Source of the DNA: Pseudomonadota bacterium
GTDB taxonomy: Bacteria > Myxococcota_A > Polyangia > Palsa-1104 > JAEUJZ01
Reading direction: 5' to 3'
NCBI GenBank assembly: GCA_035345735.1
Contig: DAORCZ010000004.1
Span: 1-35,173, forward strand
Length of the DNA stretch: 35,173 bases
The position numbers and the translations under genes were made by a program. The notes under the pieces are model-generated. The model ran no database searches and was not told where the DNA came from. It saw only the letters and a program-made list of their open reading frames with translations. Position 1 is the first letter of the stretch. Each line of letters opens with the position of its first letter. This document shows, in pieces, positions 688 to 33,398 of this stretch.

Positions 688-3600
688 CTAGTGCCGATCA
701 GGCCCGGTGTACATGGTCGGTGGCGTCGTGAACGGATCGTTGCCGATGTTCAGTTTGAAATCGAATAGGCCGTCTTTGTTTTCTGGTCTTGTCAGTATCT
801 CGGGGTCGTAAGCACGCTGGTCCCAGTCTTTGCCGTACCGGTAGAGGTCGCGCCCCAGGTCGGTATTGGAGAACCCGGGCTTTCCGTCGGGTGAGCCTGT
901 CTTGAAGATACCGTAGTCAGCGTTAATCGGGTTGTCGACCTGCATCGCTCCGACCTTGGCTTGGTCGCTAAACACCGCCAGATCGGTGTCGGACTCAGGC
1001 GTCCATGCGCCGCGTTTGAACCACTGCTCATCGCTGCCTCCAAGACCATAGTGCCGTAGGAGCTTCATCGGGTTGTTCTTCCAGCCCGTGGTACCGGAGC
1101 CGACCTGGACGACCTGCATGTCGCTGATGCCGTTGCGGTCGGCGATGGTAGCGATTCCCTCCTGGAACTCGCGCATTTGCTGGGTTGATCCCGTGAGATC
1201 GTTGACGTCGCCGCTCTTTCCTTTGTAGGTCAGCGGCACCCGCTCACCCTCCGCGTTCCCTTCGACCGCGAGCTTCAGCCGCTCGGCGGAGACCCCGGAC
1301 GGATGCTCGGCTTCGCCGCTCTGGACACGCTGGTAGTTCGACTCGTTGAGCTTGCGCAGGTGGTTGTGGGCGGCCTGGATGATCTCGTCCGTCGTAGAGC
1401 CCGATGTCAGACCAGCGGCCTTCCCCGCTTCGCTATTCACGAAAGTATCCATGCCGTTGAACTGGAGCTGGTGATTGTCGTGTTCCTCTGGGCTGATCTT
1501 GCCCGCCGCAAAGAGCTCGGCTTCCCGCTCGCGGCTTAGATGACCTTCCTTGGGCAGAGCATCGAGCTTTTCCTTCGCCCACTTGACGGCCTGTTCGACC
1601 TCCATGGGGGAAGGCGGCAGCTTCTTCGGCCCCTCCGGGTTGGTGACGTCCGCTGCGGTCAAGACAGCGGTCGTCTTGTCGTCGTGGGTCTTGCCGCCCA
1701 GAGTCGGCTTGGAGGCGTTGTCCTTCGCCGCCGCGTGTTCAAGCGGTTGGTTTGGGTCTTCAGACCGCCGCCGACCGTACTCCTCTTCCCAGGACCGGAG
1801 GGTCTCGTGGTCCTCGCGGGTCTTCGCAAACGGCTTCAGTTCATCGACGGCCTTGAGCTGCTCAGCGTTCTTGGCCAGTTCTTCATGGATTCTGGCGGCG
1901 GCATCAGCGGGTAGTTTTTCGCCGAGCTGCGCCGCCTTTTCCTTCGGTAGCGCTGGTGCCATCTTCGCCGCTTCTTCCGGCGGCAGAGCCTGGGTGATGC
2001 CCGCGGCGTGATCTGGCGGGAGCCCCTCGAGCACCTTGGCCGCCGCTTTGGCATCCGGGTGCAGACTGTCCCCCGACTTGGTTGCGGTCTGGCTGGCTGG
2101 CGGATCGATTCCTTCGCTGCCGGGAGGCTTGGTCGGGGCTTCCGATTGGGTCGGAGCCGGGGACTCGTTGGCTGGCTTGTTCGGCGCCGTTTCGTCTACC
2201 GGTGGCGACGATTCCGCGAGGGTCTTCGCCGCGGCATCGGCCTTGGACTTCAGATGCTGCTCATGCAGGGATCCTTGATAGCCCGCTGCCGCCCCCTGCG
2301 CCGTGCCACCGGCAACGGAGCTTACCCACTTGTTCAGAAGCTGGCCCGAGTCCCCGTGATACATCTCGGGGTTCACCACGTTGCCCGCGATAGCGCCGGC
2401 ACCGCCCGATACTCCGCCTTTCCACGCGCTGAAGCCAGCGCCTCCCTGCCCCATGGCGTGGTTGACGTAGCCAGATGCCAGACCAGACGCTGTGCCAGTC
2501 AGCAGGCCCATGCCGCCCGCCTTGGCCAGCGTGCCCAGCGGATTCGCTCCCTTCCACGTATTCGGATCAAGCGACGCGCTAGTCACGTTGTTGATGGCAT
2601 TCCCCGCTGCCCCCGACACGCCTGCCACAATCAACTGCTGCCCCAGCTCGGAGCTGGTCACGCCCTTCGCCAAGTTCGAAAGCGAGCCTCCGGCTGCCCC
2701 CATCGCGCCCAACGCACCACCGGTCGCCGCGCTCACGCCGGTCATGACGAGATCGTTTCGCAGATCCTCGTTTGAATAGCCCGCGCCTTGGATCGCGATC
2801 TTCGTCGCGATCGACGCCCCGCCACCCACCACTGCCGAGGCCAATGCCACCGCCGCCGGAGCCGCCGTACCCCCTGAGGCCACGGTCACGATGACGCCCG
2901 CCGTCACTGCGGCTGCTGTCGCTGCCGTGTTGGCCACCGCATCCTTGCTCTCCTGGTACGTCTTGGTGTCCATGTTCTGGTAGCCGGTCAGCTCTTCCAG
3001 GCGCTTCTCATCCTCTTTTGTCAGCTTTCCCGCCTGCGCCTTGTCCGCTAGCTCCTTGACGCGCGCATGCTGCGAATCGAGCAGCTTGCCCTTGTCGCTG
3101 AACAGATCCATGAAGCCGCGCGAGAACGCACTCGATCCCGAGCCGCGCTCGAACTGATAGGACTCTTCGGCACGGGCTAATCGCTCTTCCGGAGTCTTCG
3201 GCTCGCCTTTCATGAGCTGGCCGATCTCAAACCCCGCGCGACCGCTCGTGTTCTCCTGCAGCTCTTTGCGTAGGTCGATCTGATAGTCCTTCTGGTACTG
3301 CGCGACTAGCGTCTTGACCTGCTCCGCGTCCTTGCCTTCCAGCGTCTTTTTGATCAGCTCCTTGTCGGTCGACAGCCAGCTCCCGTGCATCGCGTACTTC
3401 ATCGCGAAGGTGTCATCGAGCTTCCCCTTGTCCTTCAGCATCTGGGCCTTGTCTTGGTCCAGGCCGGAGAAGTTCTCGTGAATCATCGCGTCGAGGTTCT
3501 GTCCCTTGGGCCCCTGTCCGTACTCCTTGTTGTAGGCCTCGATGATCTTCTTGTGCAGCTCGGGGTCGTTCTTGTCCGACTTCTCAAGCTCCTTGTAGAT

Positions 3601-4620
3601 GGCTTCCTTGTCTGTGAAGAGCCAGCCTTCTGTCGCAAGCTTCATCTTCGCAGCCGACGCTTTGTACTTGTCGCCATCCATGAGCGCGGTAGCGACCGTC
3701 TTCTCGGTACCGCTGAAGTTCTTGTCGAGGGTCTGGGTCAGGGTCTCGGACTTGCCCGTCGAGTTCTTGGTCTGCTCGGCGTAGGCCGCGGCCAGCTTTT
3801 CGCGATCCTCTTTGCTTCCTGCGGATTCCAGCGCCTTGTTAACAGTGTCCTTGTCCTGACCAATGCCCATTCCCAAAAAGCCGCCGCCACCAAACAGACC
3901 CCCGTGCATCGCTTCGTCGATCTTGACGGCGTTTTCCTTCGCCTTGTCCCCAGCGAGCTGCGCTTCAACCAGCTGCTTGTCACGTCCATCAAGCGTCGCC
4001 AAGACTTCGGGACCAGCCTGTTTGGCGACCTCGGCCCGCTTGGCTGGATCGGTGATTCCGGCGAGGATCTTGCCGACCTGCTCCTTGTCACAGTTGCCGA
4101 AGAAAGTTCCGCTCTTGGCTTGACGCAGAGCCTGCACCGCGGCGTCCACTTCATTGCCAGCCAGCGACGCCTTCGCCTCTTTGAGTTGCTCCTTCCCCAG
4201 GTTCTTGCCGATGTCTGCATCCAGGTTGTGACCGGGAAAGTGATCGGCGTAGGACTTGCGGATCTCGGCGATCTCCTCCGCGCTCTTGCCCCGTAGCTGA
4301 TCAAGCACCTTGGCCTGATCGCCACCCGAGACCCACCAGCCGTCCATCGATTTGAAGATGTTGTTGGCGGTCTCCGCCATCGCTTTCTTGTCGACCGGCT
4401 TGGCGGCGGCCGCAGGACTTGGTGTGGGCGCTGCGGCTCCGCCTGCAGTCCCTGCTGGAGTCGAGGGCTGGCCAGGCGGTGGGGCGTGCGCGGGCGTTGT
4501 CGTCGGAGCGGGTGCCGGAGTCGTTGCCTGACCAGGCGCTGAAGTCGGCTGTGATTTCTGCGCGGCGTTGTCGCTGCCGCCAAACATCGAATGAAATGCA
4601 GTGCCGATCGACTCAAACAT
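688..4620 (-). CDS. Large multidomain polymorphic-toxin-like protein (1310 aa): annexin-type repeats, a Gly/Ala-rich hydrophobic region, a PAK-rich linker, and a C-terminal putative effector domain
   Basis: Long ATG ORF preceded by a G7 tract. aa 80-475 contain about 5 repeats matching the annexin repeat pattern (for example TDKELIKKTLEGKDAEQVKTLVAQYQKDYQIDLRKELQENTSG and GDQAKVLDQLRGKSAEEIAEIRKSYADHFPGHNLDADIGKNLG). aa 563-785 are Gly/Ala/Ser-rich and hydrophobic, like a glycine zipper. aa 867-914 are four 12-aa LPxxxAAxxxxx repeats. aa 1000-1310 form a distinct C-terminal domain. Confidence 0.85.
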   Translation of the reverse strand: MFESIGTAFHSMFGGSDNAAQKSQPTSAPGQATTPAPAPTTTPAHAPPPGQPSTPAGTAGGAAAPTPSPAAAAKPVDKKAMAETANNIFKSMDGWWVSGGDQAKVLDQLRGKSAEEIAEIRKSYADHFPGHNLDADIGKNLGKEQLKEAKASLAGNEVDAAVQALRQAKSGTFFGNCDKEQVGKILAGITDPAKRAEVAKQAGPEVLATLDGRDKQLVEAQLAGDKAKENAVKIDEAMHGGLFGGGGFLGMGIGQDKDTVNKALESAGSKEDREKLAAAYAEQTKNSTGKSETLTQTLDKNFSGTEKTVATALMDGDKYKASAAKMKLATEGWLFTDKEAIYKELEKSDKNDPELHKKIIEAYNKEYGQGPKGQNLDAMIHENFSGLDQDKAQMLKDKGKLDDTFAMKYAMHGSWLSTDKELIKKTLEGKDAEQVKTLVAQYQKDYQIDLRKELQENTSGRAGFEIGQLMKGEPKTPEERLARAEESYQFERGSGSSAFSRGFMDLFSDKGKLLDSQHARVKELADKAQAGKLTKEDEKRLEELTGYQNMDTKTYQESKDAVANTAATAAAVTAGVIVTVASGGTAAPAAVALASAVVGGGASIATKIAIQGAGYSNEDLRNDLVMTGVSAATGGALGAMGAAGGSLSNLAKGVTSSELGQQLIVAGVSGAAGNAINNVTSASLDPNTWKGANPLGTLAKAGGMGLLTGTASGLASGYVNHAMGQGGAGFSAWKGGVSGGAGAIAGNVVNPEMYHGDSGQLLNKWVSSVAGGTAQGAAAGYQGSLHEQHLKSKADAAAKTLAESSPPVDETAPNKPANESPAPTQSEAPTKPPGSEGIDPPASQTATKSGDSLHPDAKAAAKVLEGLPPDHAAGITQALPPEEAAKMAPALPKEKAAQLGEKLPADAAARIHEELAKNAEQLKAVDELKPFAKTREDHETLRSWEEEYGRRRSEDPNQPLEHAAAKDNASKPTLGGKTHDDKTTAVLTAADVTNPEGPKKLPPSPMEVEQAVKWAKEKLDALPKEGHLSREREAELFAAGKISPEEHDNHQLQFNGMDTFVNSEAGKAAGLTSGSTTDEIIQAAHNHLRKLNESNYQRVQSGEAEHPSGVSAERLKLAVEGNAEGERVPLTYKGKSGDVNDLTGSTQQMREFQEGIATIADRNGISDMQVVQVGSGTTGWKNNPMKLLRHYGLGGSDEQWFKRGAWTPESDTDLAVFSDQAKVGAMQVDNPINADYGIFKTGSPDGKPGFSNTDLGRDLYRYGKDWDQRAYDPEILTRPENKDGLFDFKLNIGNDPFTTPPTMYTGPDRH

Positions 4621-4714: not shown

Positions 4715-5221
4715 TTACTCAGTAAAATGAAGCATCGGCGGTGGCGGTGGTGTCGTCGGCAACACCCGCCAGGGCTTGGGGAACCACGCCCAGCGTGTGC
4801 CGAGCAAGACCAGTCCATCAAAGGCTACGCCGGCGTCTCGCGAAAGCGCAATGAACTCCCAGCAGACCCAAATCTGTCCGGGCTGTAGCTGCGGCCCAAT
4901 GCTGATGTACCCACCCGGAAAGTGCTGCGCACGCTCATTTCTCTCTAAGAAGTCCTCGCTCCGCGCTACCGCTATTTGCAGTCGCACTTGATCGTCCCGC
5001 ACGGGCCATGCAGGCAGATTTTCCCAGAGCACGCTGTAGCCAGCCCGCGCGGCTTCAGCGCATTTGGGAAGGAAGACGCGAGCATAATCGTCGGGCTCGG
5101 GGCGAAGTGCCCGCACCATGTCCATGCGCGTCGCCGCTAGCGCCGGGTCGAGAAAACGTGAAAGCAGAACCTGCGCTTCCTGCTGACAGGTGTCGAGAGA
5201 TTGCCCTCTCATGGATGTCAT
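4715..5221 (-). CDS. Hypothetical protein (168 aa), co-oriented just upstream of the toxin-like gene
   Basis: ATG ORF with GAGGAA immediately upstream. It starts 7 nt after the stop of the preceding ORF. No family recognised. The C-terminus is W/P-rich (WAWFPKPWRVLPTTPPPPP). Confidence 0.55.
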   Translation of the reverse strand: MTSMRGQSLDTCQQEAQVLLSRFLDPALAATRMDMVRALRPEPDDYARVFLPKCAEAARAGYSVLWENLPAWPVRDDQVRLQIAVARSEDFLERNERAQHFPGGYISIGPQLQPGQIWVCWEFIALSRDAGVAFDGLVLLGTRWAWFPKPWRVLPTTPPPPPMLHFTE

Positions 5222-5747: not shown

Positions 5748-5836
5748 CGACTATCAAGGTACACCAACGACGGCGGTTGCTGCGAAGAAGCCGCGGTAGA
5801 CATGGTACGGTGGGAGACACTCGAGGAGGATGTTCG

Positions 5837-6532
5837 ATGACCGCCCAGGCGCGCGCCATCTCGATGCGAGATGCCTACTTCCTGACGTACTTGGCTGCGT
5901 GCGTCGGACCACCCCTTGTCGTTCGTGGGCTTCTTGGGCTGCTGTCCGCAAGGCCTGGTCAAGACGCGCTGTCGCACGCTCTGGAATTTGCAGCCAAGAC
6001 GCTCCCCCTTTATGACCAGAAAGCGCAGGGCACCTATCGCCTGCTGTTCGAAACGACAGCGGAGTACGGGCTCGTCATTCCAACAGAGCCGACGACCGCG
6101 ATCGCCTATGAGTCCTTCCTGCAGATCACACGTTCCGTCATTTCGCGGGCCGTTTCGGCATCACAAAACTCCGCCGTGAGCGCTGCCTATGATGCGGGCA
6201 CAGCAAGCGGCGACCTGCACCTATCGCTGTATGTCGGGCGTACCTTGTTCTATCTGCGCCCCAGCGCACCCGAGCAAGCGTTGTTGGCCACGGCGGCTGG
6301 CAACGTCGCGCGTACGCTGTTTGCCGCCCAGAAGCGGCTCGCTGAAGCGCTACGTCATTCGGCCTGGCCAGCCGTAGTAGTCGAGCTCGGGAAGAAGATG
6401 GAGGCGCTCTTTACCTTGCCTCCAGATGCCGCGCACGTACAGCACGCTGAGACGCACGCTGAGTACTCCATTTGGGAAAGGAAGGTCGTATCGCTCCTCG
6501 ACGAGCTCGGCGCGACCATCGCAAGAGTTTGA
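5837..6532 (+). CDS. Hypothetical protein (231 aa)
   Basis: ATG at 5837 preceded by GAGGAGGA (5823-5830). Divergent from 5229-5747. No recognisable motif. Confidence 0.55.
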   Translation: MTAQARAISMRDAYFLTYLAACVGPPLVVRGLLGLLSARPGQDALSHALEFAAKTLPLYDQKAQGTYRLLFETTAEYGLVIPTEPTTAIAYESFLQITRSVISRAVSASQNSAVSAAYDAGTASGDLHLSLYVGRTLFYLRPSAPEQALLATAAGNVARTLFAAQKRLAEALRHSAWPAVVVELGKKMEALFTLPPDAAHVQHAETHAEYSIWERKVVSLLDELGATIARV

Positions 6533-6611: not shown

Positions 6612-7949
6612 TCAGTTCTTTGATGTGCCAGGAGGTATGTCTTTGGAGTGAGTGCGCAGAGCCTTGCGTAGCTCTGCTCGTAGATGGCTGGGAAGGCGAT
6701 CCAGAGCGCGGGCGAGTTCAGCAGGGTCTGCGCTCGATAGGTCTAGTTCGGCGGGCTCCGAGACTGACCTGACCAGCGCCTCTTCCACCAGCCTACTCCT
6801 CACCCTCTCAACCGTCCCCGGTGCTGCATAGTGCTTCGCCGTGATCTGAAAACTCCCATGCCCCAGCGCCGCCGCCACCGCGCTGGATGTCGCGCCCGCC
6901 TCAAGCGCCAGCGTCGAGTGTAATCCGCGCAGGCTGTGCGTCGAGATCCGCGGGACGCCGGCTTCCTGGCACAGCTTCTGAATGCGCGTCCACAGCCAGG
7001 CATCGGTCAGCGGCTTGTCGGGGTGAATGGGGCTCTGACCAAATAGGAATTCATCGGGCGACTTGCCCTCGGCGCAGCGCAAGAGCAGCGGGCGCAGGAC
7101 ATCGGGGACGTTCAGGCGACGGCGCGCGTTGTCGGTCTTGCCACGCGTGATCCACAGCACGCGGCCGGCATCGTCGAGATCACGCACGATGCGGCACAGC
7201 ACCTCGCTGGCGCGCATGCCCAGCATCAGTGCCATCAGCGCGCAGGTCGCGGCGCGGTCGCCGGTTTGTGCACGCTCCACGGCGAGGGCGACGAAGCGGC
7301 GGGCTTCATCGATGCGAAGCTGAGCCTTGCCGACCTTGGGCTTGCCGACCGGCTTGATCGCGGCGAACGGATTCTGCGCCGCATATCCCTTTTCGACAGC
7401 CCAGGCGTAGAAACGTTTGCACTGAGCGAGCACGGTGCGATGAGACGCGGCGGCGACCGGCTTGCCTTTTCCGTCGAGGATGCGGCGCGTCTTAGCTTCA
7501 TACTGTGCAGCAGCCCGGGCCGACGTGATTGCGCCGAGCGAGGTGTCCTCGCCGAGAAATCGCTCGATCGCGCGCGTGATGTTGCGCGCGGTGACCGCTC
7601 CGCGCACGCGCAGCAGATAGTCCTGATACTCCGCGAGTGCGTCCGACATCGATCGGGCACCACGCGCGATCAGCGTCTGTTCGAGATCCGCGCGCAGCTT
7701 TTCCGCGGCGGCGATTGTCGGCACCACCATCGACTTGCGCGCCATGCCATCGACCACCACCATGCGGTAGCCGTTACGCGCCCTGTACGGACCATAGACA
7801 CGCGGAGAGGCCATCATCTGATCATCGCTCAGCTTTTTTGCGCTGAGAACCTCAATCGCAGCGAGGGCACGACGTGACCGCCGTGGGGATGTGTGCCCTT
7901 TGCGCCGAGCCAGCGCCGCCAGCGTGTCGTGTGATGTGGGGCGATTCAT
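6612..7949 (-). CDS. Tyrosine recombinase / phage-type integrase
   Basis: Catalytic signature in order: GMRASEV (Arg), THSLRGLHST (His-x-x-Arg), LGHGSFQITAKHY (His ... Tyr). GGAGG lies 6 nt upstream of the ATG at 7949. Confidence 0.9.
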   Translation of the reverse strand: MNRPTSHDTLAALARRKGHTSPRRSRRALAAIEVLSAKKLSDDQMMASPRVYGPYRARNGYRMVVVDGMARKSMVVPTIAAAEKLRADLEQTLIARGARSMSDALAEYQDYLLRVRGAVTARNITRAIERFLGEDTSLGAITSARAAAQYEAKTRRILDGKGKPVAAASHRTVLAQCKRFYAWAVEKGYAAQNPFAAIKPVGKPKVGKAQLRIDEARRFVALAVERAQTGDRAATCALMALMLGMRASEVLCRIVRDLDDAGRVLWITRGKTDNARRRLNVPDVLRPLLLRCAEGKSPDEFLFGQSPIHPDKPLTDAWLWTRIQKLCQEAGVPRISTHSLRGLHSTLALEAGATSSAVAAALGHGSFQITAKHYAAPGTVERVRSRLVEEALVRSVSEPAELDLSSADPAELARALDRLPSHLRAELRKALRTHSKDIPPGTSKN

Positions 7950-9247
7950 CGGCGACCTCCGCTTTCATCTAGACAGTCGTTTCTGAGCACCGCGTCCAGG
8001 CGCGCTGTCCGCAGCAACAGCACACCTGCCGCGCATAGCGACACCGCGGCCAGCACGGCGAAGAACAGGCCATGCGGCCAGCGCGACCACAGCAGGCCGA
8101 GCAGCCCCGCGGCGACATTGCCAACGGCGCCCGCTGCGAACCACAGGCCAATCGCTTGTCCGCTGCGACCCGCAGGGGCGAGGCGCGTGATTAGCGACAT
8201 GCTTAGCGGACCCAGAAAGATCTCCGCGATCGACAGCAGGATGTAGCAGCCTAGTAGCCAACCAGGATGTACGCGTGCTCCGTCGCCAAATCGAAGCGAA
8301 ACTGCCGCCAGCAACGCGAACGCAGCGGATGTGAAGACGTAGCCCCAGACCATCTTCAGCGGCGTCGATGGCTCGGCATCGTGCTCACGCAACCACGTCG
8401 CGAGCAGGCCCCACGCAGGCAGCAGCGCGATCACCAGCAGACCATGCAGCGACGCAAAGTCCGTTGGGCCAATACGAATTGAATGACCATTCAGCGTGAT
8501 CGATCGCGCCGTGTTCGATTCAGCGAACAGCGCCAGCGATCCACCTGGCTGCATCGCGGTCAGCCAGAACACGACGGCGAGCGCGGAGAGCAGCCACACT
8601 GCGCGCCATCGATCACGCGTGTTTGTATCGGGATGACCTTCCCGATGCATTGGCAGTGGCTGCGGCTCGGCCTGCGGCAAGCGACTCGCCAGCGATGCCA
8701 GCAAGAGCGCGCCGAGCAGCAGGACAATCGTGGCTAACGTGAACAGGCGCGGCCAGTACGCACCGGCCCACGTGCGCTCTGCACACAGCGGCCCGACAAT
8801 GCCCGCGACATTGATCGCGAGGTACTGAATCAGGAAGCTGCGATCGCGTCCCGCATCAGTCGATGAAGTGGCGCCGATCAGCGTGGTCATGCTCGGACGG
8901 AACAGGCTGTGACCAGCGACCACGATCGCGAGCGCAGGCCACAGTAGCAGCGCCACATCCGACGCCAGTAGCGCATGCCCTAGCGTCAGCAGCGCGACAC
9001 CCAGCAGTAGCCCGGTCGTCGGGCCGAGCCTGTGATCAGTCAGCATGCCGCCGGGCAGGCCCCCGACGTAGGACAGCGCGTTGAACAAGCCGAGGACCAG
9101 CAGCGCCGTTGGCTCAGTCAGACCGTGGCGACGATGCAGATACAAAACAAACAGCGGCAGGATCGCGGTGAACGCGAACCGCTCGCAGCCCTGCACGACG
9201 CAGAGCCAGACCAAGGCAGGGGTTGCTCGACCAGACGTGCTTTGCAT
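7946..9247 (-). CDS. MFS transporter of the POT/PTR2 (proton-dependent oligopeptide transporter) type
   Basis: Multiple TM helices. The N-terminal motif GCERFAFTAILPLFVLYL resembles the POT ExxERFxYY signature. ATG at 9247 has GGGAGAAG upstream (the longest ORF would start at 9325). Its stop overlaps the integrase start (ATGA at 7946-7949). Confidence 0.75.
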   Translation of the reverse strand: MQSTSGRATPALVWLCVVQGCERFAFTAILPLFVLYLHRRHGLTEPTALLVLGLFNALSYVGGLPGGMLTDHRLGPTTGLLLGVALLTLGHALLASDVALLLWPALAIVVAGHSLFRPSMTTLIGATSSTDAGRDRSFLIQYLAINVAGIVGPLCAERTWAGAYWPRLFTLATIVLLLGALLLASLASRLPQAEPQPLPMHREGHPDTNTRDRWRAVWLLSALAVVFWLTAMQPGGSLALFAESNTARSITLNGHSIRIGPTDFASLHGLLVIALLPAWGLLATWLREHDAEPSTPLKMVWGYVFTSAAFALLAAVSLRFGDGARVHPGWLLGCYILLSIAEIFLGPLSMSLITRLAPAGRSGQAIGLWFAAGAVGNVAAGLLGLLWSRWPHGLFFAVLAAVSLCAAGVLLLRTARLDAVLRNDCLDESGGRR

Positions 9248-9477
9248 ACACTTCTCCCGTTTGCGGCGGGCGCTGGTTTCCAGGCCGTGGCCCGTCGCAG
9301 GCAAGGGAGCGGGCGCAGGCTCCACCCTGCGTCCGCTCCTGTTTCATCCCGGCCGCTCAGCCAGAGCGCAAGACAGCCGTACCAGAGTCTCTAGACCTGG
9401 TGGCGCAGACGTGGCAGGGTGTGCGATGCGTTTGTTAGCAGCCGAGAAGCATTAGCGAACAACCTCAAACTATGATC

Positions 9478-9516
9478 GCAAATGTTTGCAGTCAACAATC
9501 ATCTGCAAACATTTCT
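9478..9516. promoter_or_regulatory. Paired palindromic operator-like sites upstream of the RHH gene
   Basis: GCAAATGTTTGC (9478-9489) and GCAAACATTTCT (9505-9516). nt 9480-9491 and 9503-9514 form a perfect 12-nt inverted repeat with an 11-nt spacer, ending 10 nt before the ATG at 9525. Confidence 0.5.
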
Positions 9517-9524
9517 CGCATGCC

Positions 9525-9710
9525 ATGCCGAAAACTGCCGCCATCGGGGTCCGTGTCGATCCCAAGATCAAAGAAGCCGCCGAACGCGCCGCCGCCGAGG
9601 ACCACCGCTCGGTAGCGTCCCTTTTGGAAAAACTGCTGACGGAGTATCTGACGGAGAAGGGCTATCTAGGCACAGGCCGCAGCAGTGGCGGCAAGGATGC
9701 CCGCCGCTAG
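9525..9710 (+). CDS. Ribbon-helix-helix (CopG/Arc-type) DNA-binding protein
   Basis: MPKTAAIGVRVDPKIKEAAERAAAEDHRSVASLLEKLL fits the beta-strand, helix, helix pattern of RHH repressors and antitoxins. Small size (61 aa). Confidence 0.65.
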   Translation: MPKTAAIGVRVDPKIKEAAERAAAEDHRSVASLLEKLLTEYLTEKGYLGTGRSSGGKDARR

Positions 9711-9728
9711 CCGGGTCATGCTGTCAAC

Positions 9729-9762
9729 GCGTCAGCGTACCTGACGCTTCGGTGACTTGTTG
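9729..9762 (+). terminator. Candidate intrinsic terminator after the RHH gene
   Basis: GCGTCAG-cgtac-CTGACGC perfect 7-bp stem (9729-9747), followed by a moderately T-rich tail ttcggtgacttgttg. Confidence 0.3.
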
Positions 9763-9875
9763 ATGCCTGGTCGACGGTGTGCTCGCAGACCAGCGGAGCT
9801 TGGCCAGACGGATCCATGATCTGTCATGATGCCTTTTGACGGATCCTAAAGACGGATCGCAGGGGGGGGCAGTTC

Positions 9876-10985
9876 ATGTCAGAGCAGGGGCACACCGACA
9901 AGCGGTGCGCGCAGTGCGCAGGACCCATCCAGGCGAAGGGTCGTCGAGACCGCAAGTACTGTTCGCCAACGTGCCGGACTGCGGCTTGGTCTGCCCGTGC
10001 AGGCAAAAGGCCGCTGGCGGCACATTCGTCCGCGTCTGGCGCCGAGCCGCGACAGGCCAGCGGTCTCGCAAACGGCAGCGCCGGGTTGAATGATCTGTCG
10101 GTGCAGGCGATTGCTCAGGCCGTGGTGGCGGCCATCGCCGAGTTATCAGGGCGGCAGCAACCGTCCCTTGCAATGGCCGATGTTGCCGCCGTGTTGGATG
10201 GGATGCCTCCAAATGGTTCATCCACATCCCCGGTGCAGGAACAGATGCAGGCCATGAAGCGGCTGCAGGAGGAGGTCATGCACCTGCGTGATGAGTTGGC
10301 TCAGATGCGACAAGAGCAAGAGGAGTGCTGGTCGCAATGCAAAGCAGCGCTGGAAGTGGAGAGCATGGCGGGAAGGCACGCCGCACATCAGAGGCAACAA
10401 CTGGCTAAAGACGTGACCACCTTGGGCGAAACCCTGACCAAGCTCCGCGCGGTCGCCGAACGGACTCGGAACGACGTTTTTGACCTCAGAGACTGGCTCT
10501 ACGAAACACGGCGAGAACAGCCAAGTCTGGACGATGTAGTCGCGGGCCTACCGCCTTCGCAGCAGCAGTTTCTCAAGCGCGTGCTGTCGGAACAAAGCCA
10601 GACGGTTCAGGCTGATGTCGGTCGGTTAGGCGACCCGCTGCTTTTTCTGATGCGAAAGAAGGTCATCTTCCAACACGAGCTCGCACTACTGCGCCGCACC
10701 AGCTATTTGCAGGGCTCGGCAAGGCGTCTACCTGATGACCGACCGGAGACGCTTGAGCAGTCGATCCAATACGCCGCGCAAGAGGCTCGCGAACTGTTCA
10801 TGGAAAAACAGCGGCAATTCAAGTCGGGCAAAGCCAGATGGCTCCCAGATAGGAGCCGCCTCGATGAGGAGAGCGAACTCCTGCTGCGCCGGGAACAAGA
10901 GGCCGTGATTGAAAAAATCGAAGATGAGCTCGCGACCGCGCGCCGCAGGAAGGAAGAGGAGGAACATGAGGGCAGACGGCGCTAG
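9876..10985 (+). CDS. Zn-ribbon plus coiled-coil protein (369 aa), function unknown
   Basis: N-terminal CAQCAGPIQAKGRRDRKYCSPTCR (CxxC...CxxC ribbon). Long Q/E/R-rich predicted coiled coil and a basic/acidic tail. ATG preceded by a G8 tract (9862-9869). Confidence 0.6.
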   Translation: MSEQGHTDKRCAQCAGPIQAKGRRDRKYCSPTCRTAAWSARAGKRPLAAHSSASGAEPRQASGLANGSAGLNDLSVQAIAQAVVAAIAELSGRQQPSLAMADVAAVLDGMPPNGSSTSPVQEQMQAMKRLQEEVMHLRDELAQMRQEQEECWSQCKAALEVESMAGRHAAHQRQQLAKDVTTLGETLTKLRAVAERTRNDVFDLRDWLYETRREQPSLDDVVAGLPPSQQQFLKRVLSEQSQTVQADVGRLGDPLLFLMRKKVIFQHELALLRRTSYLQGSARRLPDDRPETLEQSIQYAAQEARELFMEKQRQFKSGKARWLPDRSRLDEESELLLRREQEAVIEKIEDELATARRRKEEEEHEGRRR

Positions 10986-11277
10986 GTTCGGCAGGGCATG
11001 TGAGGGCATTGAAAGACGGAGCGAGTAGCAAGTCCAGGACATGCGTCGGCGGCAGTTCGACGCCGGGAATCGAAATCATTGAGAGACGACTTCGTCCACG
11101 ACTTCGCCTCGTTGACCGACAAGGGGAAATCGCGTGCAAACGGGAGGCCTCACGATGCGACGCCGTTGGCGCACCATTGGCAGTCACTGCCCCGGAAAGG
11201 ACAGCAGTCCGGCGTTAGAGACGCAGCCGCCGCCCGCCCAGCAAGCAGGGTGCGAACGCTGCGATCCTCGCCCCCGG

Positions 11278-12324
11278 CTACTTCACCCTCTTTGTCCCCG
11301 GTGAGCGCTTCCCAGGCAGGACCAGGACAGCGCGATCAAAATCGCTCGGCGCAGCGGCTGCTCCTTCGAGCCGTTTCTGGTGGAATTTGTCGTACTCATG
11401 CTCGGCAAATTCCTTGGCCATGTCGTGCGAGATGCGGCCCGCGTGCTGCAGGATCTCACGGCTGTTCAGCGTCAAGAAGGCATGCAGCTTGGCGATCCAG
11501 TCGCGCATGTACATGGGAATGCGGCGCATCGCCTGGCCCTCGGCGAACAGAAGGTACTGCTCGACCAGATTGTTCAGCGCAGCCAATTCGTCCTCGGACA
11601 GATAGTTCTTCGCGATGCTGACGTCGCCCTTGCGGACCTTGGGACCGCGCCAGTTGGTCAGGCCCATGTTGGGCTGCTCGGCGTTGGCGCGCTCGCGGAT
11701 GATCTCGGCGGCGGTGTGGCCGGTGATGGCCCAGTGCAGCTTGTTCTGAACTGTCTGAAAGAACTGAATGCTGACGTCCTGTGTCGGGTCGTAATCGAGG
11801 CTGGTCGCGTAGATGTCGGTGATTTTCTGATAGAAGCGCCGCTCCGACGTGCGGATGTCTTGAATCCGCCGCAGCAGCTCTTCGAAGTAGTCGAATGGCT
11901 GGTCGGGATTCTTCAGCCGCTCGTCGTCCATGACGAAGCCTTTGACGATGAACTCGCGCAGCTTCTGGGTCGCCCAGATGCGAAAGCGCGTCGCCGTATG
12001 ACTGGTCACGCGGTAACCAACCGAGATGATCGCATCCAGGCTGTAGAAGCTAGTTCGGTACTTCTTCCCGTCGCTGGCAGTAGTAAAGAAGATCTTTACT
12101 ACTGCCTCTTCGGACAGCTCGCCTTCGGTAAAGATGTTCTTCAGGTGCTGGCTGATGTTCTGCTTGCTGGTCTGAAACAGCTCAGCCATGTGCTGCTGCG
12201 TCAGCCACACCGTCTCGCCCTGCAGCCGCACGTCCAGCTTCAGCTTCCCGTCCTCAGCCTGATAGACCAGAAACTGCCCCAGCTCAGGCGGGGCAAGCGC
12301 GGGCTCGATGTCGTCGTGGGTCAC
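11278..12324 (-). CDS. rhuM: RhuM-family protein
   Basis: LKLDVRLQGETVWLTQQHMAELFQTSKQNISQHLKNIFTEGEL ... YSLDAIISVGYRVTSHTATRFRIWATQ is the characteristic RhuM N-terminal HTH region. GTG start with GAGGA upstream. Confidence 0.85.
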   Translation of the reverse strand: MTHDDIEPALAPPELGQFLVYQAEDGKLKLDVRLQGETVWLTQQHMAELFQTSKQNISQHLKNIFTEGELSEEAVVKIFFTTASDGKKYRTSFYSLDAIISVGYRVTSHTATRFRIWATQKLREFIVKGFVMDDERLKNPDQPFDYFEELLRRIQDIRTSERRFYQKITDIYATSLDYDPTQDVSIQFFQTVQNKLHWAITGHTAAEIIRERANAEQPNMGLTNWRGPKVRKGDVSIAKNYLSEDELAALNNLVEQYLLFAEGQAMRRIPMYMRDWIAKLHAFLTLNSREILQHAGRISHDMAKEFAEHEYDKFHQKRLEGAAAAPSDFDRAVLVLPGKRSPGTKRVK

Positions 12325-12682
12325 GGGAGGGTCCTCGCAGGCGGCGTCGTAAACAGCGATCGGCAGCCACGCTCAACAAGGCTGCTCATCGCAGAGCGCG
12401 ATCTATAGCGCGGTTCCCTGACGCCCGGCAGTTGAATCCAGCCACTCGACTCGTGCGCGCTGACGGGCCATCGAGCGAGGCTGGCCTAGCCAACGACCCG
12501 CCAATCCCAAACGCAACTGATCAGCGGAGAGCGCTCGCAACCATGGCCAGCGTCCCGAATACGGCTATGAAGACCAAGGTCCTGATCAGGCCAACGCCCG
12601 AGGAGACAGTCGAATTACTTGGCTCACGATGTTGGCGATCGAACTGCCAGCGTGAGTTCCAATAGAACAGTGTTGCTGACGT

Positions 12683-14659
12683 CTAACTTGCCAGCCAGTC
12701 AGTGGGCACGAGGGCTTTCCCGTCCCGCCATACATCGACCAAGTGGGCATCGACATGAGCCCATACATCCTTGCTCGCATGGTCCAGCACTAGGATCTGT
12801 AGGCCCTTGCTCGCCTTAGCAGCTGCACCGAGTGTGACGAATATCTTGCGAACCGCTGCAATGTCTTCATCGCCGAGGATCGGGTCGTCTCCCTCCTTGG
12901 CCTCTTTGGCGAGTGTTCGTGGGAAGTAGACTTGGCTCGGTTGGTCGAGAACGAGCAAGCTCGGTACCGAGCTGGTCTTGAGGCTGAGGAATAGATCGTG
13001 GAGGCCAAGCATTGCAGCGATGTGGTACGAGAGCCAGTTCGCGCCGCTGCCGATTTCCCAGAGAAAGTCGGGTCGCCCAGACCTTCCCGTCACACGGATC
13101 GTCAGATCGTCGATGTTCAACTCGGCAGGGTCGTTCGGACGCTCCGAGTCGAGGCCGGGAAGGAGCCTCGCCATAGTCGCAGTCACGCGGGCGAGCGCCG
13201 CTTTCTGTCGCTCTCGCGCTGCTCCATCCGAGATACCTGCGCGGAGCTGGTCGAGCCGAACCTTCAGATCTGCCACTTCCGCTGCAAGCGCTGGATCTCC
13301 ATCGGGTGTTTTCAACACGATTAGTGCCTGCTCTATGCGACCGAGGAAGCGATCGACGGCAGTTCGTCGCCACCGTTCCCTCTGAATGCGTGTTGAGCGG
13401 GCTTCGATGGCCTGCTTTCGCGAACGCACCCCCTTCAATCTGTCGGTGAACTGCCGCACCTGCTCGCGCACCTGGACCAACTCCTTGTCGAACGCTGCTG
13501 GAACCGGCTCAAACTGGCGGGCGTTCGCCTCCACGTTCGCCAATGCGTCGCACAGCGCATCGAGTTCGTCGGTTGCGTGGTCGAGCCCGCCGCCGCACAC
13601 AGGACAAGTCGCGTCAGTGCTACCCGCGAGGTCACGCAGCCACCGCGAGAGCTGCAGGCGATCTCGCTGTTTCTTCAGCGCGCCCGTGTAGTCGGTCACC
13701 GTTGAGCGCAGCTTGGTCATGTTGTCCAACCGCACCTTCACCTCGGCGAGCTGCAGCGAGATTTCCCCCTCCTCTTTATCGAGACCAGCGGTCTCGGCAG
13801 CCGCTGCATCTAAAGCGCTGTCAGAAACGAGGGCGTCGTCCGATGTCTTCTGGACGACCTCCTCGAGCGATGCCAGTAGCTGCTCGGGGCGTTGGCCAGG
13901 GGAGGCGCTATCGGACGAGATGAGCCCCAAGTCTCGCGCCTCTGAAACCCAGTTCTGAAGCTCCGCGCTCCACCGCTCTGAAGCGGTGCGTTGTGCACTC
14001 AGCTCTCTCTCCTTGCGTCGATATTCTCGAACGAGCTGATCAAGTTCCCAACGCCGAGCGAGAACGTCAGGAGTCACCGCGCCAAGGACATACGGGAAGA
14101 TCGTTCGAAGCTTCTCCTTGTGCTCCATTGTGTCGGCCCTGAAGAACAACACATCGGGATTGGCGACAATGTTCTGCGGCTGAAACGTGAACGCGAGCAG
14201 ATCGCGGAAGCTGGGGCGGGCCTTGAAGTTGTTGCCCTGAGCCGCGGGGTCAAAGCTGAGGTTCGACAGTCCAGCGAGTTTGTCGAGCATCCTTTTCACT
14301 GCATCTACATTGGTATTCTTCTCGCGTACCGAGTGCGGGATGTCGATAGTCTCGCCTTCAAGCAGGAACATGTCCCCCGTGCTTTGCTGGTCGCCGGGCT
14401 CACGTCTGGCGAGCAGCTTCTCGCCGTCATCTGTAGCAATGACGACACCGAACCAGGAACAAGCGTCACGAATCGTCTTTACAGGCACAGCGCACCGATC
14501 GGAACCTAGGCAGTAGTCGATGATCGGAATCACTGCAGACTTACCCGTCTTTGATGCGCCCGTGATCACGTTCAGTTTGTTGGCAGCGAACGACACGACA
14601 CGCGGTTCGAACTGCTCGTTGCGGGGCCAGAGGACAAGGCTTCTGATTTGGAGGTGCAT
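12683..14659 (-). CDS. DUF3732-type ABC/SMC-like ATPase of a three-component ABC (ABC-3C) system
   Basis: N-terminus MHLQIRSLVLWPRNEQFEPRVVSFAANKLNVITGASKTGKSAVIPIIDYCLGSDRCAVPVKTIRDACSWFG is the canonical DUF3732 start. Walker A GASKTGKS at 14537-14560. Long coiled coil with CPVC at 13595-13606. Signature-like GSGANW. Walker B LLVLDQPS. The ATG at 14659 lies 1 nt after the upstream stop. Confidence 0.9.
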   Translation of the reverse strand: MHLQIRSLVLWPRNEQFEPRVVSFAANKLNVITGASKTGKSAVIPIIDYCLGSDRCAVPVKTIRDACSWFGVVIATDDGEKLLARREPGDQQSTGDMFLLEGETIDIPHSVREKNTNVDAVKRMLDKLAGLSNLSFDPAAQGNNFKARPSFRDLLAFTFQPQNIVANPDVLFFRADTMEHKEKLRTIFPYVLGAVTPDVLARRWELDQLVREYRRKERELSAQRTASERWSAELQNWVSEARDLGLISSDSASPGQRPEQLLASLEEVVQKTSDDALVSDSALDAAAAETAGLDKEEGEISLQLAEVKVRLDNMTKLRSTVTDYTGALKKQRDRLQLSRWLRDLAGSTDATCPVCGGGLDHATDELDALCDALANVEANARQFEPVPAAFDKELVQVREQVRQFTDRLKGVRSRKQAIEARSTRIQRERWRRTAVDRFLGRIEQALIVLKTPDGDPALAAEVADLKVRLDQLRAGISDGAARERQKAALARVTATMARLLPGLDSERPNDPAELNIDDLTIRVTGRSGRPDFLWEIGSGANWLSYHIAAMLGLHDLFLSLKTSSVPSLLVLDQPSQVYFPRTLAKEAKEGDDPILGDEDIAAVRKIFVTLGAAAKASKGLQILVLDHASKDVWAHVDAHLVDVWRDGKALVPTDWLAS

Positions 14660-14660
14660 G

Positions 14661-15149
14661 TCAGAACTCCACCTTGAGCAATCCCGCAACCTCGAAGAGC
14701 GAGACATCGCGGCACCAGGCACCGAGCTTCTCAGCAGACTTCAGAAGGTCGCTTACGGCCCTTGCTTCCGTAGGGGGCACCGCTTGGGACCTAGGCCAGA
14801 GGACCGCTTCTTTCGGAACAAGCGTGACCAACCCCGCCCGAATTGCGATGCGTAGGGAACGCAGAGACAGATCTCGCATCGCGAGCATGCGGGGGTGAAT
14901 TGAAAGCAGGACGTCGCCACGATCGCTGAACTTCGCCTCGAACTTTCTTAGGCCCGAAGCAGCGTGCGTTCCCGCTACTTCTTCGAACGACTTCGCATGG
15001 AACGCGAGCGGGAGAACCAAGAACGCCACCGGCAAGGGGGTGCCGTTCGTACTCGAATTGGGGGAAAATCCGCAGACGAAGCGCCAGAGCAACGTCGCGC
15101 CCAGGGCAGGGTTCTGCATCGCCTGGACTTCGTTGAGGAAAGCCGTCAC
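14661..15149 (-). CDS. ABC-3C middle component (162 aa)
   Basis: The motif QNPALGATLLWRFVCGF ... PLPVAFLVLPLAFH is typical of middle-component proteins found between effector and DUF3732 ATPase. The GTG start overlaps the upstream stop (GTGA, 15146-15149). Confidence 0.75.
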   Translation of the reverse strand: MTAFLNEVQAMQNPALGATLLWRFVCGFSPNSSTNGTPLPVAFLVLPLAFHAKSFEEVAGTHAASGLRKFEAKFSDRGDVLLSIHPRMLAMRDLSLRSLRIAIRAGLVTLVPKEAVLWPRSQAVPPTEARAVSDLLKSAEKLGAWCRDVSLFEVAGLLKVEF

Positions 15150-16447
15150 GCACCACCGCCTTCATCGATGAAGCTGTGCCCTGAAGTGGCTGCTGGGGCG
15201 GTTGCTGCTTGCCCCTTCACAGCCTGTTCGTTCAGTCCGTCTGCCCTGAAGAAATCACGGTAGCGTGGATGCCACCCGATTCGCAGCGAGTCGGCGAGCG
15301 TGTGAACGCTGCCGGGCACGAAGTACATGGGAACATCCATGCCTTGGAGACGCATCTGTAGGCTACTACAGTTGGCATAGAGAAGGCGCCCTCGGTCCTC
15401 CTCAACGGCGGTCCTGTGTTCGATCTCGACGCGGGTCCTTTGGCTATACCAGGCTCGCTCGAGGCCATCCTCGAAGTCACAGAAGCTGCCCTCGATGACG
15501 TCGCCCCGCTCGCTCCATGTCGTCCGATCGACTGCGGAGCGCAGGAAATCGTTCACCGCTTGAACCAAAGCGGATTCCTCGCACTTCACGGCCTCCAGCT
15601 GTCGAACGTAGGTTCGCGCTCGTAGTTCTTTGTCGACATCGGCCTGCGAGATGTCCGCTTGCGTCGACCTGAGCAGGTTCTCAGACCGGTCGAATTTCCT
15701 CGCGGCGCCAACGAGTTGATTATGAAAGTCCTCGTATGGGAGAATAGCGGGCAGTCTCTTCTCAACGAGCTTCTTGATGGTGCGGTCTGCCCAGCCGAGG
15801 AGGTAGAACAGCACTTCTTCACAAGCGCCATCGCTGATCGCTTTCGCTGCGATCAGTGGGAGCAGGTCATCGTTCGGTGCGCCAGAACCTTTTTCGAGCG
15901 TCAGATTCGTGAAAAGGAGGGCAACTACGTCATCAGACGCCGCCAGTACGCCGTTCACATGCTCGCCCAGGTCGGCAGGCAGCTTCGCGCGTGCAGCACG
16001 TCGGGGGGCATTGCCCCAGAACTCGTTGCGTAGCTTTTGAACAAGTGCGTCAGCATCGGCCTTGTTCGTTACTTGATGAATGCGATCGATGACGTCCCCG
16101 TGGTGATCCTGGGCGACATAAAGCACGAACTTCGTGTCCAACTTCAATGCGCCGTCGCGGATAGCGCGGACCCAGTTGTGCAGCGTCTTCCATAAATCGA
16201 CGCTGCGGTCGGCCACCGGGTTATGAGTGAGGCCGCTCTTGTCCTGTTCCGCGAGAACGCCGTCGGGGCCCTGCGTCGCGACATCGTCGAGGTGCTCCAC
16301 GGACACCGCTTGGCCAGGACGTGCGCGAAGGAGGTGGGCGACTGAACGTGTGACTTGAATGACGTAGCCATAGAACTGGCCTGGCACATTGGTGCTGCGC
16401 CTCTTCTTCCTGGTCGTCTTTGGCGTCGCGTTCTTCGTTGTCGTCAT
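15146..16447 (-). CDS. ABC-3C effector: Cap4/DUF4297-like PD-(D/E)xK nuclease N-domain plus ABC-3C C-terminal domain
   Basis: GYVIQVTRSVAHLL...VSVEHLDDVATQGPDGVLAEQDKS matches the G-Y-x-Q ... E-x-x-D ... Q-x-K layout of the Cap4 dsDNA nuclease domain. The C-terminus carries ...PGSVHTLADSLRIGWHPRY. Codon third-position GC rises sharply after the ATG at 16447 (the longest ORF would start at 16546). Confidence 0.75.
   Translation of the reverse strand: MTTTKNATPKTTRKKRRSTNVPGQFYGYVIQVTRSVAHLLRARPGQAVSVEHLDDVATQGPDGVLAEQDKSGLTHNPVADRSVDLWKTLHNWVRAIRDGALKLDTKFVLYVAQDHHGDVIDRIHQVTNKADADALVQKLRNEFWGNAPRRAARAKLPADLGEHVNGVLAASDDVVALLFTNLTLEKGSGAPNDDLLPLIAAKAISDGACEEVLFYLLGWADRTIKKLVEKRLPAILPYEDFHNQLVGAARKFDRSENLLRSTQADISQADVDKELRARTYVRQLEAVKCEESALVQAVNDFLRSAVDRTTWSERGDVIEGSFCDFEDGLERAWYSQRTRVEIEHRTAVEEDRGRLLYANCSSLQMRLQGMDVPMYFVPGSVHTLADSLRIGWHPRYRDFFRADGLNEQAVKGQAATAPAATSGHSFIDEGGGA

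Positions 16448-31952: not shown

Positions 31953-33398
<1,446 letters not shown>

Follow-up and report, generated by a model that had tools for sequence, protein, structure and literature searches.

The window analysed here is an entire contig of 35,173 bp (DAORCZ010000004.1), and its first kilobases hold, on the reverse strand, a gene for a 1310-aa toxin that is followed by small immunity genes and preceded by two helper genes, named up168 and up172 in this work (Table 1). From the N-terminus onward, the toxin is made of a short motif, a low-complexity linker, five annexin repeats, a helical junction, a glycine-zipper region, a linker with spacer, and a C-terminal domain hereafter called the warhead. 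In our view, the locus is likely to constitute a polymorphic toxin-immunity system belonging to uncultured Myxococcales. Homologues of the toxin were collected (n = 39; related proteins and loci are cited by P and L numbers), and genome loci (n = 14) carry the labels Myxococcales (10), Deltaproteobacteria (1), Acidobacteriota (1), Pseudomonadota (1) and Proteobacteria (1). The nearest genome record is a metagenome-assembled genome (MAG) of Myxococcales, with DNA 84% identical across 6.5 kb, and it contains a full-length toxin orthologue that is 88.7% identical (L006).

Note that the automatic gene calls of several relatives (P0001-P0004) begin at Met81. Since the N-terminal motif and the Pro/Ala/Thr linker recur in homologues, and since the product was independently called with 1310 aa in L024, a locus of a JGI metagenome, the long reading is the correct one, as the earlier note on this DNA had proposed for the open reading frame (ORF). 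The same note had described about five annexin repeats, a Gly/Ala/Ser-rich hydrophobic stretch, a distinct C-terminal domain and the layout of a polymorphic toxin, all of which were recovered here with adjusted limits or additional support, and it had announced neither the nucleotidyltransferase-like character of the warhead nor the two conserved upstream helper genes.

Table 1. Features of the window, ordered by position (aa numbers refer to the toxin; AF2, AlphaFold2)
Feature	Position	Strand	Evidence or remark
Second immunity copy, pseudogene (TGA at 84-86 replacing a Trp codon), truncated by the contig end	1..179	-	Translation, DNA alignment
Candidate cognate immunity gene, 113 aa	294..635	-	Same family behind the same warhead in four architectures
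Toxin gene, 1310 aa	688..4620 (stop codon included)	-	ORF list, homologues
aa 1081-1310, C-terminal toxin domain, nucleotidyltransferase-like	691..1380	-	Homologue search, conserved columns, AF2
aa 922-1080, helical pre-toxin region	1381..1857	-	BLASTP/BLASTN breakpoints
aa 858-921, MgtE_N-like LPxxxAA helical repeats, pre-warhead spacer	1858..2049	-	Pfam MgtE_N 31.9 bits (cut-off 25.9)
aa 791-857, Ala/Pro/Ser-rich linker; most homology stops at or just before it	2050..2250	-	BLASTP, composition
aa 556-790, Gly/Ala-rich hydrophobic glycine-zipper region, putative membrane-insertion/translocation module	2251..2955	-	Composition, motifs
aa 476-555, helical junction	2956..3195	-	Alignment A2; three helices in AF2 model
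aa 80-475, annexin region of five repeats, Ca2+ sites degenerate, AB loops rich in Trp/Phe	3196..4383	-	Profile, AF2 and Foldseek
aa 17-79, Pro/Ala/Thr-rich low-complexity linker	4384..4572	-	Composition A 27%, P 24%, T 14%
aa 1-16, conserved aromatic/small-residue motif MFESIGTAFHSMFGGS, candidate export or import signal	4573..4620	-	Homologue N-termini
up168, helper, 168 aa, cytosolic, motifs FPGGY and W-x-W-F-P-K-P-W-R-V-L-P	4715..5221	-	Conserved neighbour
up172, helper, 172 aa, one N-terminal transmembrane helix	5229..5747	-	Conserved upstream of up168
Divergent 251-aa gene, membership uncertain	5777..6532	+	Kept in closest relatives only
Tyrosine integrase, adjoins the toxin operon	6612-7949	-	Pfam (Phage_integrase, 62.6 bits)
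Lamassu-type defence operon, complete	12683-16546	-	
LmuB, DUF3732	12683-14722	-	PADLOC LmuB, E 7e-131
LmuC	14661-15149	-	Lamassu operon
LmuA, Pfam CTD7 of ABC-3C systems	15146-16546	-	Pfam
Ser/Thr protein kinase gene	16737-19835	+	
EutB-EutC fusion, 817-aa ORF	21224-23677	-	
Ser/Thr protein kinase gene	23822-25720	-	
Ser/Thr protein kinase gene	31953-33398	-	

Exchange of C-termini and linkage to immunity genes

BLASTP similarity to most homologues stops at aa 765-807, and the conserved N-terminal ~790 aa leads, in 30 homologue tails, to 17 unrelated C-terminal types, among which are PLD, Fic and PT-HINT-preceded ends as well as the end of P0004, which is weakly adenosine-deaminase-like. Recombination breakpoints were located at ~aa 915 (P0004) and ~aa 955 (P0005), and one relative remains about 90% identical as far as the spacer repeats (aa 915) and then continues into a different warhead. 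The arrays of LPxxxAA repeats that form this spacer are longer in P0004 and P0005. At the DNA level, L002 is 92% identical to L001 and 98.5% identical to L006 as far as the glycine zipper reaches and unrelated beyond, where it encodes an unrelated warhead and then a HEAT-like gene. This HEAT-like gene recurs in L001 (99.6% identical), downstream of a nucleotidyltransferase-type end and its immunity copies, and is, judging from these alignments, an orphan immunity gene left by cassette displacement.

In addition, the downstream gene tracks the C-terminus: the 113-aa gene stands after the nucleotidyltransferase-type end, the HEAT-like gene after the deaminase-like end and other genes after a third type. 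The constant N-terminus, the variety of tails and the accompanying change of the downstream gene support the polymorphic-toxin reading of the earlier note, and two outcomes that it had named as refuting, a lack of profile similarity to annexins and a constant C-terminus with no small ORF linked to it, were not what the family shows. Compared with the polymorphic toxins defined by Zhang et al. 2012, the family displays tail polymorphism, immunity linkage and orphan or tandem cassettes, and differs from them solely in the recognisable trafficking domain, which it lacks. As a separate observation, the Fic-ended P0031 is followed in L005 (13192-14043) by a distinct 283-aa gene that itself has a Fic domain, an odd occupant of the 'immunity' position.

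The 113-aa ORF directly downstream of the toxin has no match in Pfam or NCBIfam. Its relatives were collected by a word-indexed search, which recovers only those of at least 70% identity, and a profile was built from these. With this approach, a homologue was identified in a VgrG-PAAR-warhead-109 aa-DUF4123 locus (L020, hmmsearch E 3e-11), another one of 113 aa that overlaps a 216-aa stand-alone warhead in an acidobacterial MAG (L022/L023, E 1.5e-11), and a third one after a 542-aa warhead toxin in L012. Because of this strict co-occurrence, we infer that the 113-aa protein is the cognate immunity protein and would neutralise the warhead. Note that in L012 the 542-aa warhead ORF and the immunity homologue (9044-9385) belong to a toxin cluster (7391-13864) that continues with an MFE/MSLF-type annexin toxin of different end; neither up168 nor up172 was detected in this cluster.

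Relatives carry two to three intact immunity copies in tandem, with three each in L006 and L024. The earlier note had reported a small duplicated ORF downstream of the toxin; the first copy stands, and the second, 81% identical to it in DNA, proved to be a truncated pseudogene in the window and not an intact duplicate. The contig ends within this tandem array, probably through an assembly break at the repeat.

A nucleotidyltransferase-like warhead

The C-terminal domain is real and distinct, with a core at aa 1081-1310, and it occurs outside the annexin toxins as well. An exhaustive HMMER search in 1.84 billion representatives returned 67 relatives, most of which are a ~210-aa core ending proteins of 900-2500 aa with differing N-termini. 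Its N-terminal partners include eCIS_core/DUF4157 (P0056, P0064), MORN repeats (P0047) and a PAAR domain encoded directly after VgrG (P0107), and the warhead also exists as a stand-alone protein of 216 aa. No Pfam model covers the warhead-immunity pair, and no existing name for the warhead domain was found in the literature searched. In three unrelated giant proteins (P0047, P0055 and P0081), a 2H-SAK phosphoesterase domain (PF22547) adjoins the warhead, and this pairing hints, from domain content, at a common nucleotide or RNA-end chemistry.

The conserved columns of the domain are G1174-S1175-x-T-x-G, P1184-x-K1186, S1210-D1211-x-D1213-x-A-x-F-S1218, W1266 and D1287-F-K-L-N. G1174 is invariant in alignments of 27 and 47 rows, S1175 is invariant in the former and 98% conserved in the latter, D1211 and D1213 are invariant, and D1287 is 89% conserved. 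In the AF2 model of the warhead (predicted local distance difference test, pLDDT, 96.5), these motifs follow strand 1, occupy strand 2 and fall on a strand further along. Pol-beta nucleotidyltransferases have this layout, in which hG[GS] comes after beta1, beta2 bears [DE]h[DE]h and a subsequent strand provides the third carboxylate. We therefore favour, with reasonable confidence drawn from the conserved columns and the model, the reading of the warhead as a diverged Pol-beta-type nucleotidyltransferase. Foldseek against the PDB ranked MNT, DrrA, CutA and TUT4 at the top, all non-significant, with deaminases next, and Pfam NTP_transf_2 was the only family matched by more than one warhead member (3/27, at the DxD strand).

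Other results speak against this assignment: the best Foldseek match of the warhead reached an E-value of 0.5 with template-modelling (TM) scores of at most 0.38, the best E-value for NTP_transf_2 was only 0.045, and the warhead profile found no match in the PDB. Foldseek against BFVD returned nothing significant, and hhalign of the warhead profile to one kanamycin nucleotidyltransferase sequence gave no signal, an uninformative outcome. The deaminases that came next in the Foldseek ranking can be set aside. The deaminase fold is defined by an H-x-E / C-x-x-C zinc site, and such a site cannot be present in a domain with no conserved His or Cys column.

Annexin repeats and the glycine-zipper region

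Single-sequence searches in Pfam, NCBIfam, PADLOC and the PDB gave little beyond a sub-threshold annexin match and the MgtE_N match, and profiles were therefore needed. Alone, the toxin matched Pfam annexin (PF00191) with one repeat at 23.3 bits, under the cut-off of 25, and annexins of the PDB only weakly (phmmer, E ~0.3). A profile of alignment A2, which covers aa 75-530 of the toxin and 17 homologues (18 members), reached annexin VI with an E-value of 1e-46 and the annexins A5, A7, A11 and XII with 1e-25 to 1e-27. Most toxin homologues exceed the Pfam annexin threshold by themselves, and the clade of the window's toxin is a divergent one. The AF2 model (pLDDT 84.5) consists of five units of five helices, as expected of the ~70-residue annexin repeat, followed by three more helices, and Foldseek with this model returned annexins only (probability 1.00).

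The calcium sites of these repeats are a different matter. A type II Ca2+ site was sought as G-x-G-T in the AB loop with an acidic ligand ~38 residues downstream. In the toxin and its seven nearest relatives in A2, the G-x-G-T-D/E motif is gone from all five AB loops, which read GWWVSGGDQ, GTFFGNCDK, GMGIGQDK, GWLFTDK and GSWLSTDK in the toxin, and the acidic ligand has become Asn in all repeats but the second, where it is deleted. In distant homologues, each repeat retains both features, as a G-x-G-T-D-E loop and an acidic ligand (x-E-hydrophobic-S-G). The Ca-dependent binding to acidic phospholipids that the earlier note had read from the annexin repeats is thus not implied, the canonical ligands being lost in five of five repeats; with type II sites lost and loops turned aromatic or hydrophobic, membrane association would instead be Ca2+-independent.

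Nor is the view of annexin as an unusual targeting device supported, since annexins in bacterial toxins were published in 2012, 2014 and 2021. Zhang et al. 2012 proposed annexin as an accessory module that helps to breach target membranes in polymorphic toxins and toxins delivered by Photorhabdus virulence cassettes (PVC) (PMC3482391). Kodavali et al. 2014 reported multi-domain bacterial annexins, among them one with five domains from the myxobacterium Corallococcus coralloides and one from Burkholderiales in which annexin is joined to Pyocin_S and Colicin D, and suggested that annexin aids toxin delivery (PMC3894181). Geller et al. 2021 found annexin enriched in loci of extracellular contractile injection systems (eCIS) and put it forward as a marker of those eCIS effectors that are directed at eukaryotes (PMC8213781).

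The junction that follows the repeats carries the longest conserved run of the family, Y-x-F-E-R-G-S-G-S ... L-D-x-Q, in which F, R and the first G are invariant and E, S and the second G are conserved in at least 90%. It is modelled with low confidence around aa 495-508 (low pLDDT at 421-434 of the AF2 model), and could be a hinge, a cleavage site or a helper-binding site. The hydrophobic Gly/Ala/Ser-rich stretch comes next, its limits now refined to aa 556-790 (235 aa). Gly and Ala make up 40% of it, with 10 GxxxG and 30 small-xxx-small-xxx-small motifs; it holds the sole strongly hydrophobic stretch of the toxin (centred on aa 569-605), and it is kept in 34 of the 39 homologues. The curated glycine-zipper families of Pfam (Gly-zipper_*) gave no match at E <= 1.

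N-terminal motif and helper genes

The toxin opens with an aromatic and small-residue motif (Table 1) and many homologues with variants of it (MFEGITKAFNSVFGGG, MFEFITDLFSS, MFDSVLNFFGVG, MFDSVLNFF and MSLFGWLGG...WSSVTSLFGGG), for which the consensus may be given as MFExIxxxF and which is followed in homologues by a comparable linker of variable sequence and length. Hydropathy of the toxin N-terminus gave no Sec-like hydrophobic core or segment. A double-glycine leader of peptidase-containing ABC transporters (PCAT), as might be read from 'MFGG', was considered and dropped, for P0006, P0017 and P0022 have no GG and a C39-ABC transporter is absent nearby. The threonine flanked by hydrophobic residues resembles a TonB box, a likeness that is suggestive only, and the motif is not a recognised TonB/TolB box. 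By its conservation, this 16-aa segment is the sole candidate trafficking signal of the toxin.

The genes up172, up168 and toxin are co-stranded, with gaps of 7 and 94 nt. Both helpers are 83% identical in L001 and 51-63% in L003; up168 stands beside the toxin in most related loci, up172 stands upstream of up168 in many, and the distant loci L105-L107 encode a transmembrane protein with two up168 paralogues. No match to either helper was found in Pfam, NCBIfam or PADLOC, nor in the PDB by profile search. A metagenome scan with the up168 profile gave 80 loci, in some of which the gene lies upstream of MFE-type toxins and in others downstream of giant toxins of 2100-2340 aa. These giants embed the annexin/glycine-zipper module (aa ~80-775 of our toxin) behind a different ~780-aa N-terminus, with a WHD-AAA ATPase gene before them and PT-HINT plus a toxin at their end. 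Because up168 tracks the annexin/glycine-zipper module through two architectures, and does not track the N-terminal motif, its distribution suggests a chaperone or protector of the membrane-active module. Note that solitary up168-family genes also stand among unrelated genes in L038, L045 and L062, with no annexin toxin within 6-8 kb and in one case on a low-GC contig; thus the up168 family is wider than the toxin family.

Genomic setting

The GC content is 0.57-0.63 over the first ~17 kb of the window versus 0.62-0.70 for the remainder. A tyrosine integrase adjoins the toxin operon in this lower-GC island, and integrases flank relatives in L005 and L024 as well; the family's loci have either an integrase beside them, as in these three cases, or housekeeping genes around them. 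A scan of the window for an island integration site detected no tRNA gene. The divergent 251-aa gene between up172 and the integrase has a copy 79% identical in L001, is present in L006 and L024, and did not turn up in loci that are more distant. The same island also holds a Lamassu-type defence operon, which is complete. Outside the toxin locus, EutB and EutC, the large and small subunits of ethanolamine ammonia-lyase, are fused in one 817-aa ORF, and three Ser/Thr protein kinase genes, one of them fused to an AAA_16 ATPase, occur in 17 kb, which is typical of myxobacterial genomes and consistent with the taxonomic assignment.

Proposed mechanism and delivery route

No export module was found in the toxin by Pfam, NCBIfam or PADLOC, and its N-terminus is not hydrophobic, in agreement with what had been noted before. 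Secretion-system components were absent among the scanned ORFs of the 35-kb window and within +-10 kb of relatives on five contigs of 61 kb-1.4 Mb. The same scans gave no sheath, tube, baseplate, VgrG, Hcp, PAAR, eCIS_core or known adaptor. Markers of a type VI secretion system (T6SS; PAAR/VgrG/Hcp, MIX/FIX, DUF4123/DUF1795/DUF2169) were found neither in the toxin nor in its neighbourhood, and DUF4157/eCIS_core was found neither in the toxin nor in the scanned window ORFs nor within +-10 kb of the five relatives.

In the scheme that we propose, the operon would be read in the order up172 (membrane), up168 (cytosolic helper), toxin and immunity gene(s). In the producer, the 113-aa immunity protein would neutralise the warhead, and up168 would shield or escort the annexin/glycine-zipper module. 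As to export, our leading guess, held tentatively, is a self-contained, bacteriocin-like release and uptake through the N-terminal linear motif. Once in the target periplasm, the annexin repeats would dock, Ca2+-free, on acidic phospholipids of the inner membrane, and the glycine-zipper segment would insert and pass the warhead to the cytoplasm, for which the glycine zipper of Tde1 and the annexin proposal of Zhang et al. 2012 for PVC toxins (PMC3482391) may serve as precedents. Tde1, an Agrobacterium T6SS effector, requires its glycine zipper to move a cytoplasm-acting enzyme across the target inner membrane (PMC10240207). With NTPs as substrates, the warhead would then modify some essential target in the cytoplasm, either an RNA 3' end or a protein, and arrest growth, and kin with the immunity gene would survive. 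A bolder proposal, which we hold to be rather unlikely, is that the MFE motif, up172 and the up168 paralogues make up a new self-contained delivery route for very large myxobacterial toxins, independent of the type I to type IX secretion systems (T1-T9SS) and of contractile injection, in which the lipid would be recognised by Ca2+-independent annexins and the glycine zipper would carry a nucleotidyltransferase-type warhead across the inner membrane.

Some points weigh against this scheme as a whole. Every biochemical activity and the export route are inferred from sequence, and the lack of an export signal of known type would also be compatible with a cytoplasmic, membrane-anchored protein. 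The up168 gene, being found solitary and downstream of toxins too, could equally have a second immunity function. Moreover, the global TM-scores of the AF2 model to annexin structures are 0.20-0.34, with no superposition on the four-repeat disc, which means that the repeats are either packed unlike this disc or poorly predicted.

The toxin might also be the cargo of a distally encoded contractile injection system (CIS; eCIS or T6SS), with the motif and linker as loading signal and up168 as adaptor or chaperone, an explanation to which we grant a limited but real chance. Indeed, the annexin and glycine-zipper module is also found inside the 2100-2300-aa toxins, which come right behind a WHD-AAA ATPase gene and close an operon of large genes (L086, L108, L051) and are trailed by immunity-like genes and the up168 domain. 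In addition, eCIS loci show an enrichment of annexin (PMC8213781), toxins delivered by PVC have been noted to contain it (PMC3482391), and the warhead itself sits on PAAR and eCIS_core proteins. However, no CIS genes turned up in the window ORFs that were scanned or within +-10 kb of the five relatives, and the MFE-type proteins have a 16-aa motif in place of the ~780-aa N-terminus of the giants, a replacement that points to a different route than theirs. For the giants themselves, the eCIS linkage is only a lead, since the operon upstream of P0037 shows no Pfam-recognisable eCIS core genes aside from the WHD-AAA ATPase.

An anti-eukaryotic effector, whose annexins would target phosphatidylserine (PS)-type lipids of amoebae, nematodes or fungi and whose small ORFs would prevent self-intoxication before export, seems improbable to us. 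Myxobacteria do prey on varied soil organisms, Fic and PLD ends are frequent in host-directed effectors, and annexin, mostly a eukaryotic domain, was taken by Geller et al. as a marker of anti-eukaryotic eCIS effectors (PMC8213781). Against this, tandem-amplified and orphan immunity genes argue for exposure to the incoming toxin of kin, the warhead-immunity pair belongs to a VgrG-PAAR-DUF4123 locus of a kind typical of antibacterial T6SS effectors, and the loss of Ca2+ sites removes the classical PS-binding mechanism.

It is very improbable that the toxin acts inside the producer as an abortive-infection or toxin-antitoxin (TA)-type defence effector, its nucleotidyltransferase held at the inner membrane and the small ORF being an antitoxin, for although the locus lies in a lower-GC island beside an integrase and Lamassu, shows no recognisable secretion signal, has a TA-like counterpart in the overlapping stand-alone pair of warhead and 113-aa gene (L022/L023), and recalls the cytosolic, membrane-anchored topology predicted by Kodavali et al. 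for one bacterial annexin (PMC3894181), swapped warheads along with orphan and tandem immunity genes are the hallmark of polymorphic toxins that are exported, the same warhead is mounted on VgrG-adjacent PAAR and eCIS_core proteins, family members end in PT-HINT-released toxins, PLD or Fic, and the genes of the toxin locus match no PADLOC model.

Comparison with known systems

Among the closest published counterparts of the exported polymorphic toxin proposed here are the annexin toxins of Haliangium and Microscilla (PVC/eCIS; PMC3482391, PMC8213781), in which annexin likewise stands N-terminal to an exchangeable enzymatic domain in myxobacterial hosts. However, those toxins contain a metallopeptidase of the DUF4157/eCIS_core kind and occupy eCIS operon ends, neither of which applies to our toxin, and they were described with a single annexin domain, whereas ours has five repeats, a 235-aa zipper, the N-terminal motif and the helpers. 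The annexins of Kodavali et al. (PMC3894181) are similar in being myxobacterial, in reaching five domains and in having predicted transmembrane regions and fused toxin domains; that study did not cover C-terminal polymorphism, immunity and helper genes, the N-terminal motif or the state of the Ca2+ sites, and the five-domain annexin of C. coralloides is likened to our family by its description only. Tandem GxxxG and small-xxx-small motifs are shared with the glycine-zipper toxins Tde1 (PMC10240207) and TelE of the type VII secretion system (PMC10434224), but in the T6SS effector Tde1 the zipper is a short motif near the N-terminus, and ours is a central region of 235 aa placed after annexin repeats.

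For the warhead, the comparison is with Pol-beta toxins and modifiers (MNT of HEPN-MNT, MenT/AbiEii, the AMPylation domain of DrrA, and the RelA/SpoT-like Tas1), with which it shares G-S...D-x-D...D on an alpha-beta-alpha-beta core and, presumably, the pairing with a small neutralising protein. It differs from them by a longer spacing between GS and DxD and by the extra motifs N-P-x-K, W1266 and F-K-L-N. The helper genes call to mind the prePAAR effectors of the T6SS, which use transmembrane helices for inner-membrane entry and are encoded beside the small cytosolic Eag (DUF1795) chaperone. The likeness lies in a toxin with hydrophobic helices that a small cytosolic protein, encoded beside it, could shield; however, our toxin has no PAAR or prePAAR motif, and up168 does not match DUF1795. 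In its layout, with a short conserved N-terminal motif on a Pro/Ala linker and an immunity gene, our toxin resembles, finally, the colicin- and pyocin-like bacteriocins, in which an unstructured N-terminal part bearing a short Ton/Tol-box epitope serves translocation, the middle binds a receptor, the cytotoxic end is paired with an immunity protein, and a gene for lysis or release is present; Pfam gave neither a Pyocin_S or colicin domain nor a lysis gene in our case.

Altogether, the presence of annexins in bacterial toxins, including multi-domain myxobacterial annexins with transmembrane regions, is documented, and what appears as new, being not described in the literature searched, is the unit of a five-repeat annexin devoid of Ca2+ sites with a long glycine-zipper module, together with the N-terminal motif, the up172/up168 helpers and the nucleotidyltransferase-like warhead with its immunity family. 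In myxobacteria, kin discrimination and predation are driven by polymorphic toxins, whose known means of delivery are the lipoproteins of outer-membrane exchange, T6SS, Rhs and eCIS. The interest of the present family, which is widespread in uncultured Myxococcales, comes chiefly from its export route and from its new toxin-immunity pair. With no known trafficking domain, yet with a conserved motif and helpers, it offers a concrete handle on an uncharacterised export or import route, and the pair of a nucleotidyltransferase-like domain and a ~110-aa protein is common to T6SS and eCIS effectors. The repeats may in addition be a natural case of annexins shifted from Ca2+-bridged to hydrophobic-loop membrane binding, and a modular cassette that would combine lipid docking and translocation could serve protein delivery.

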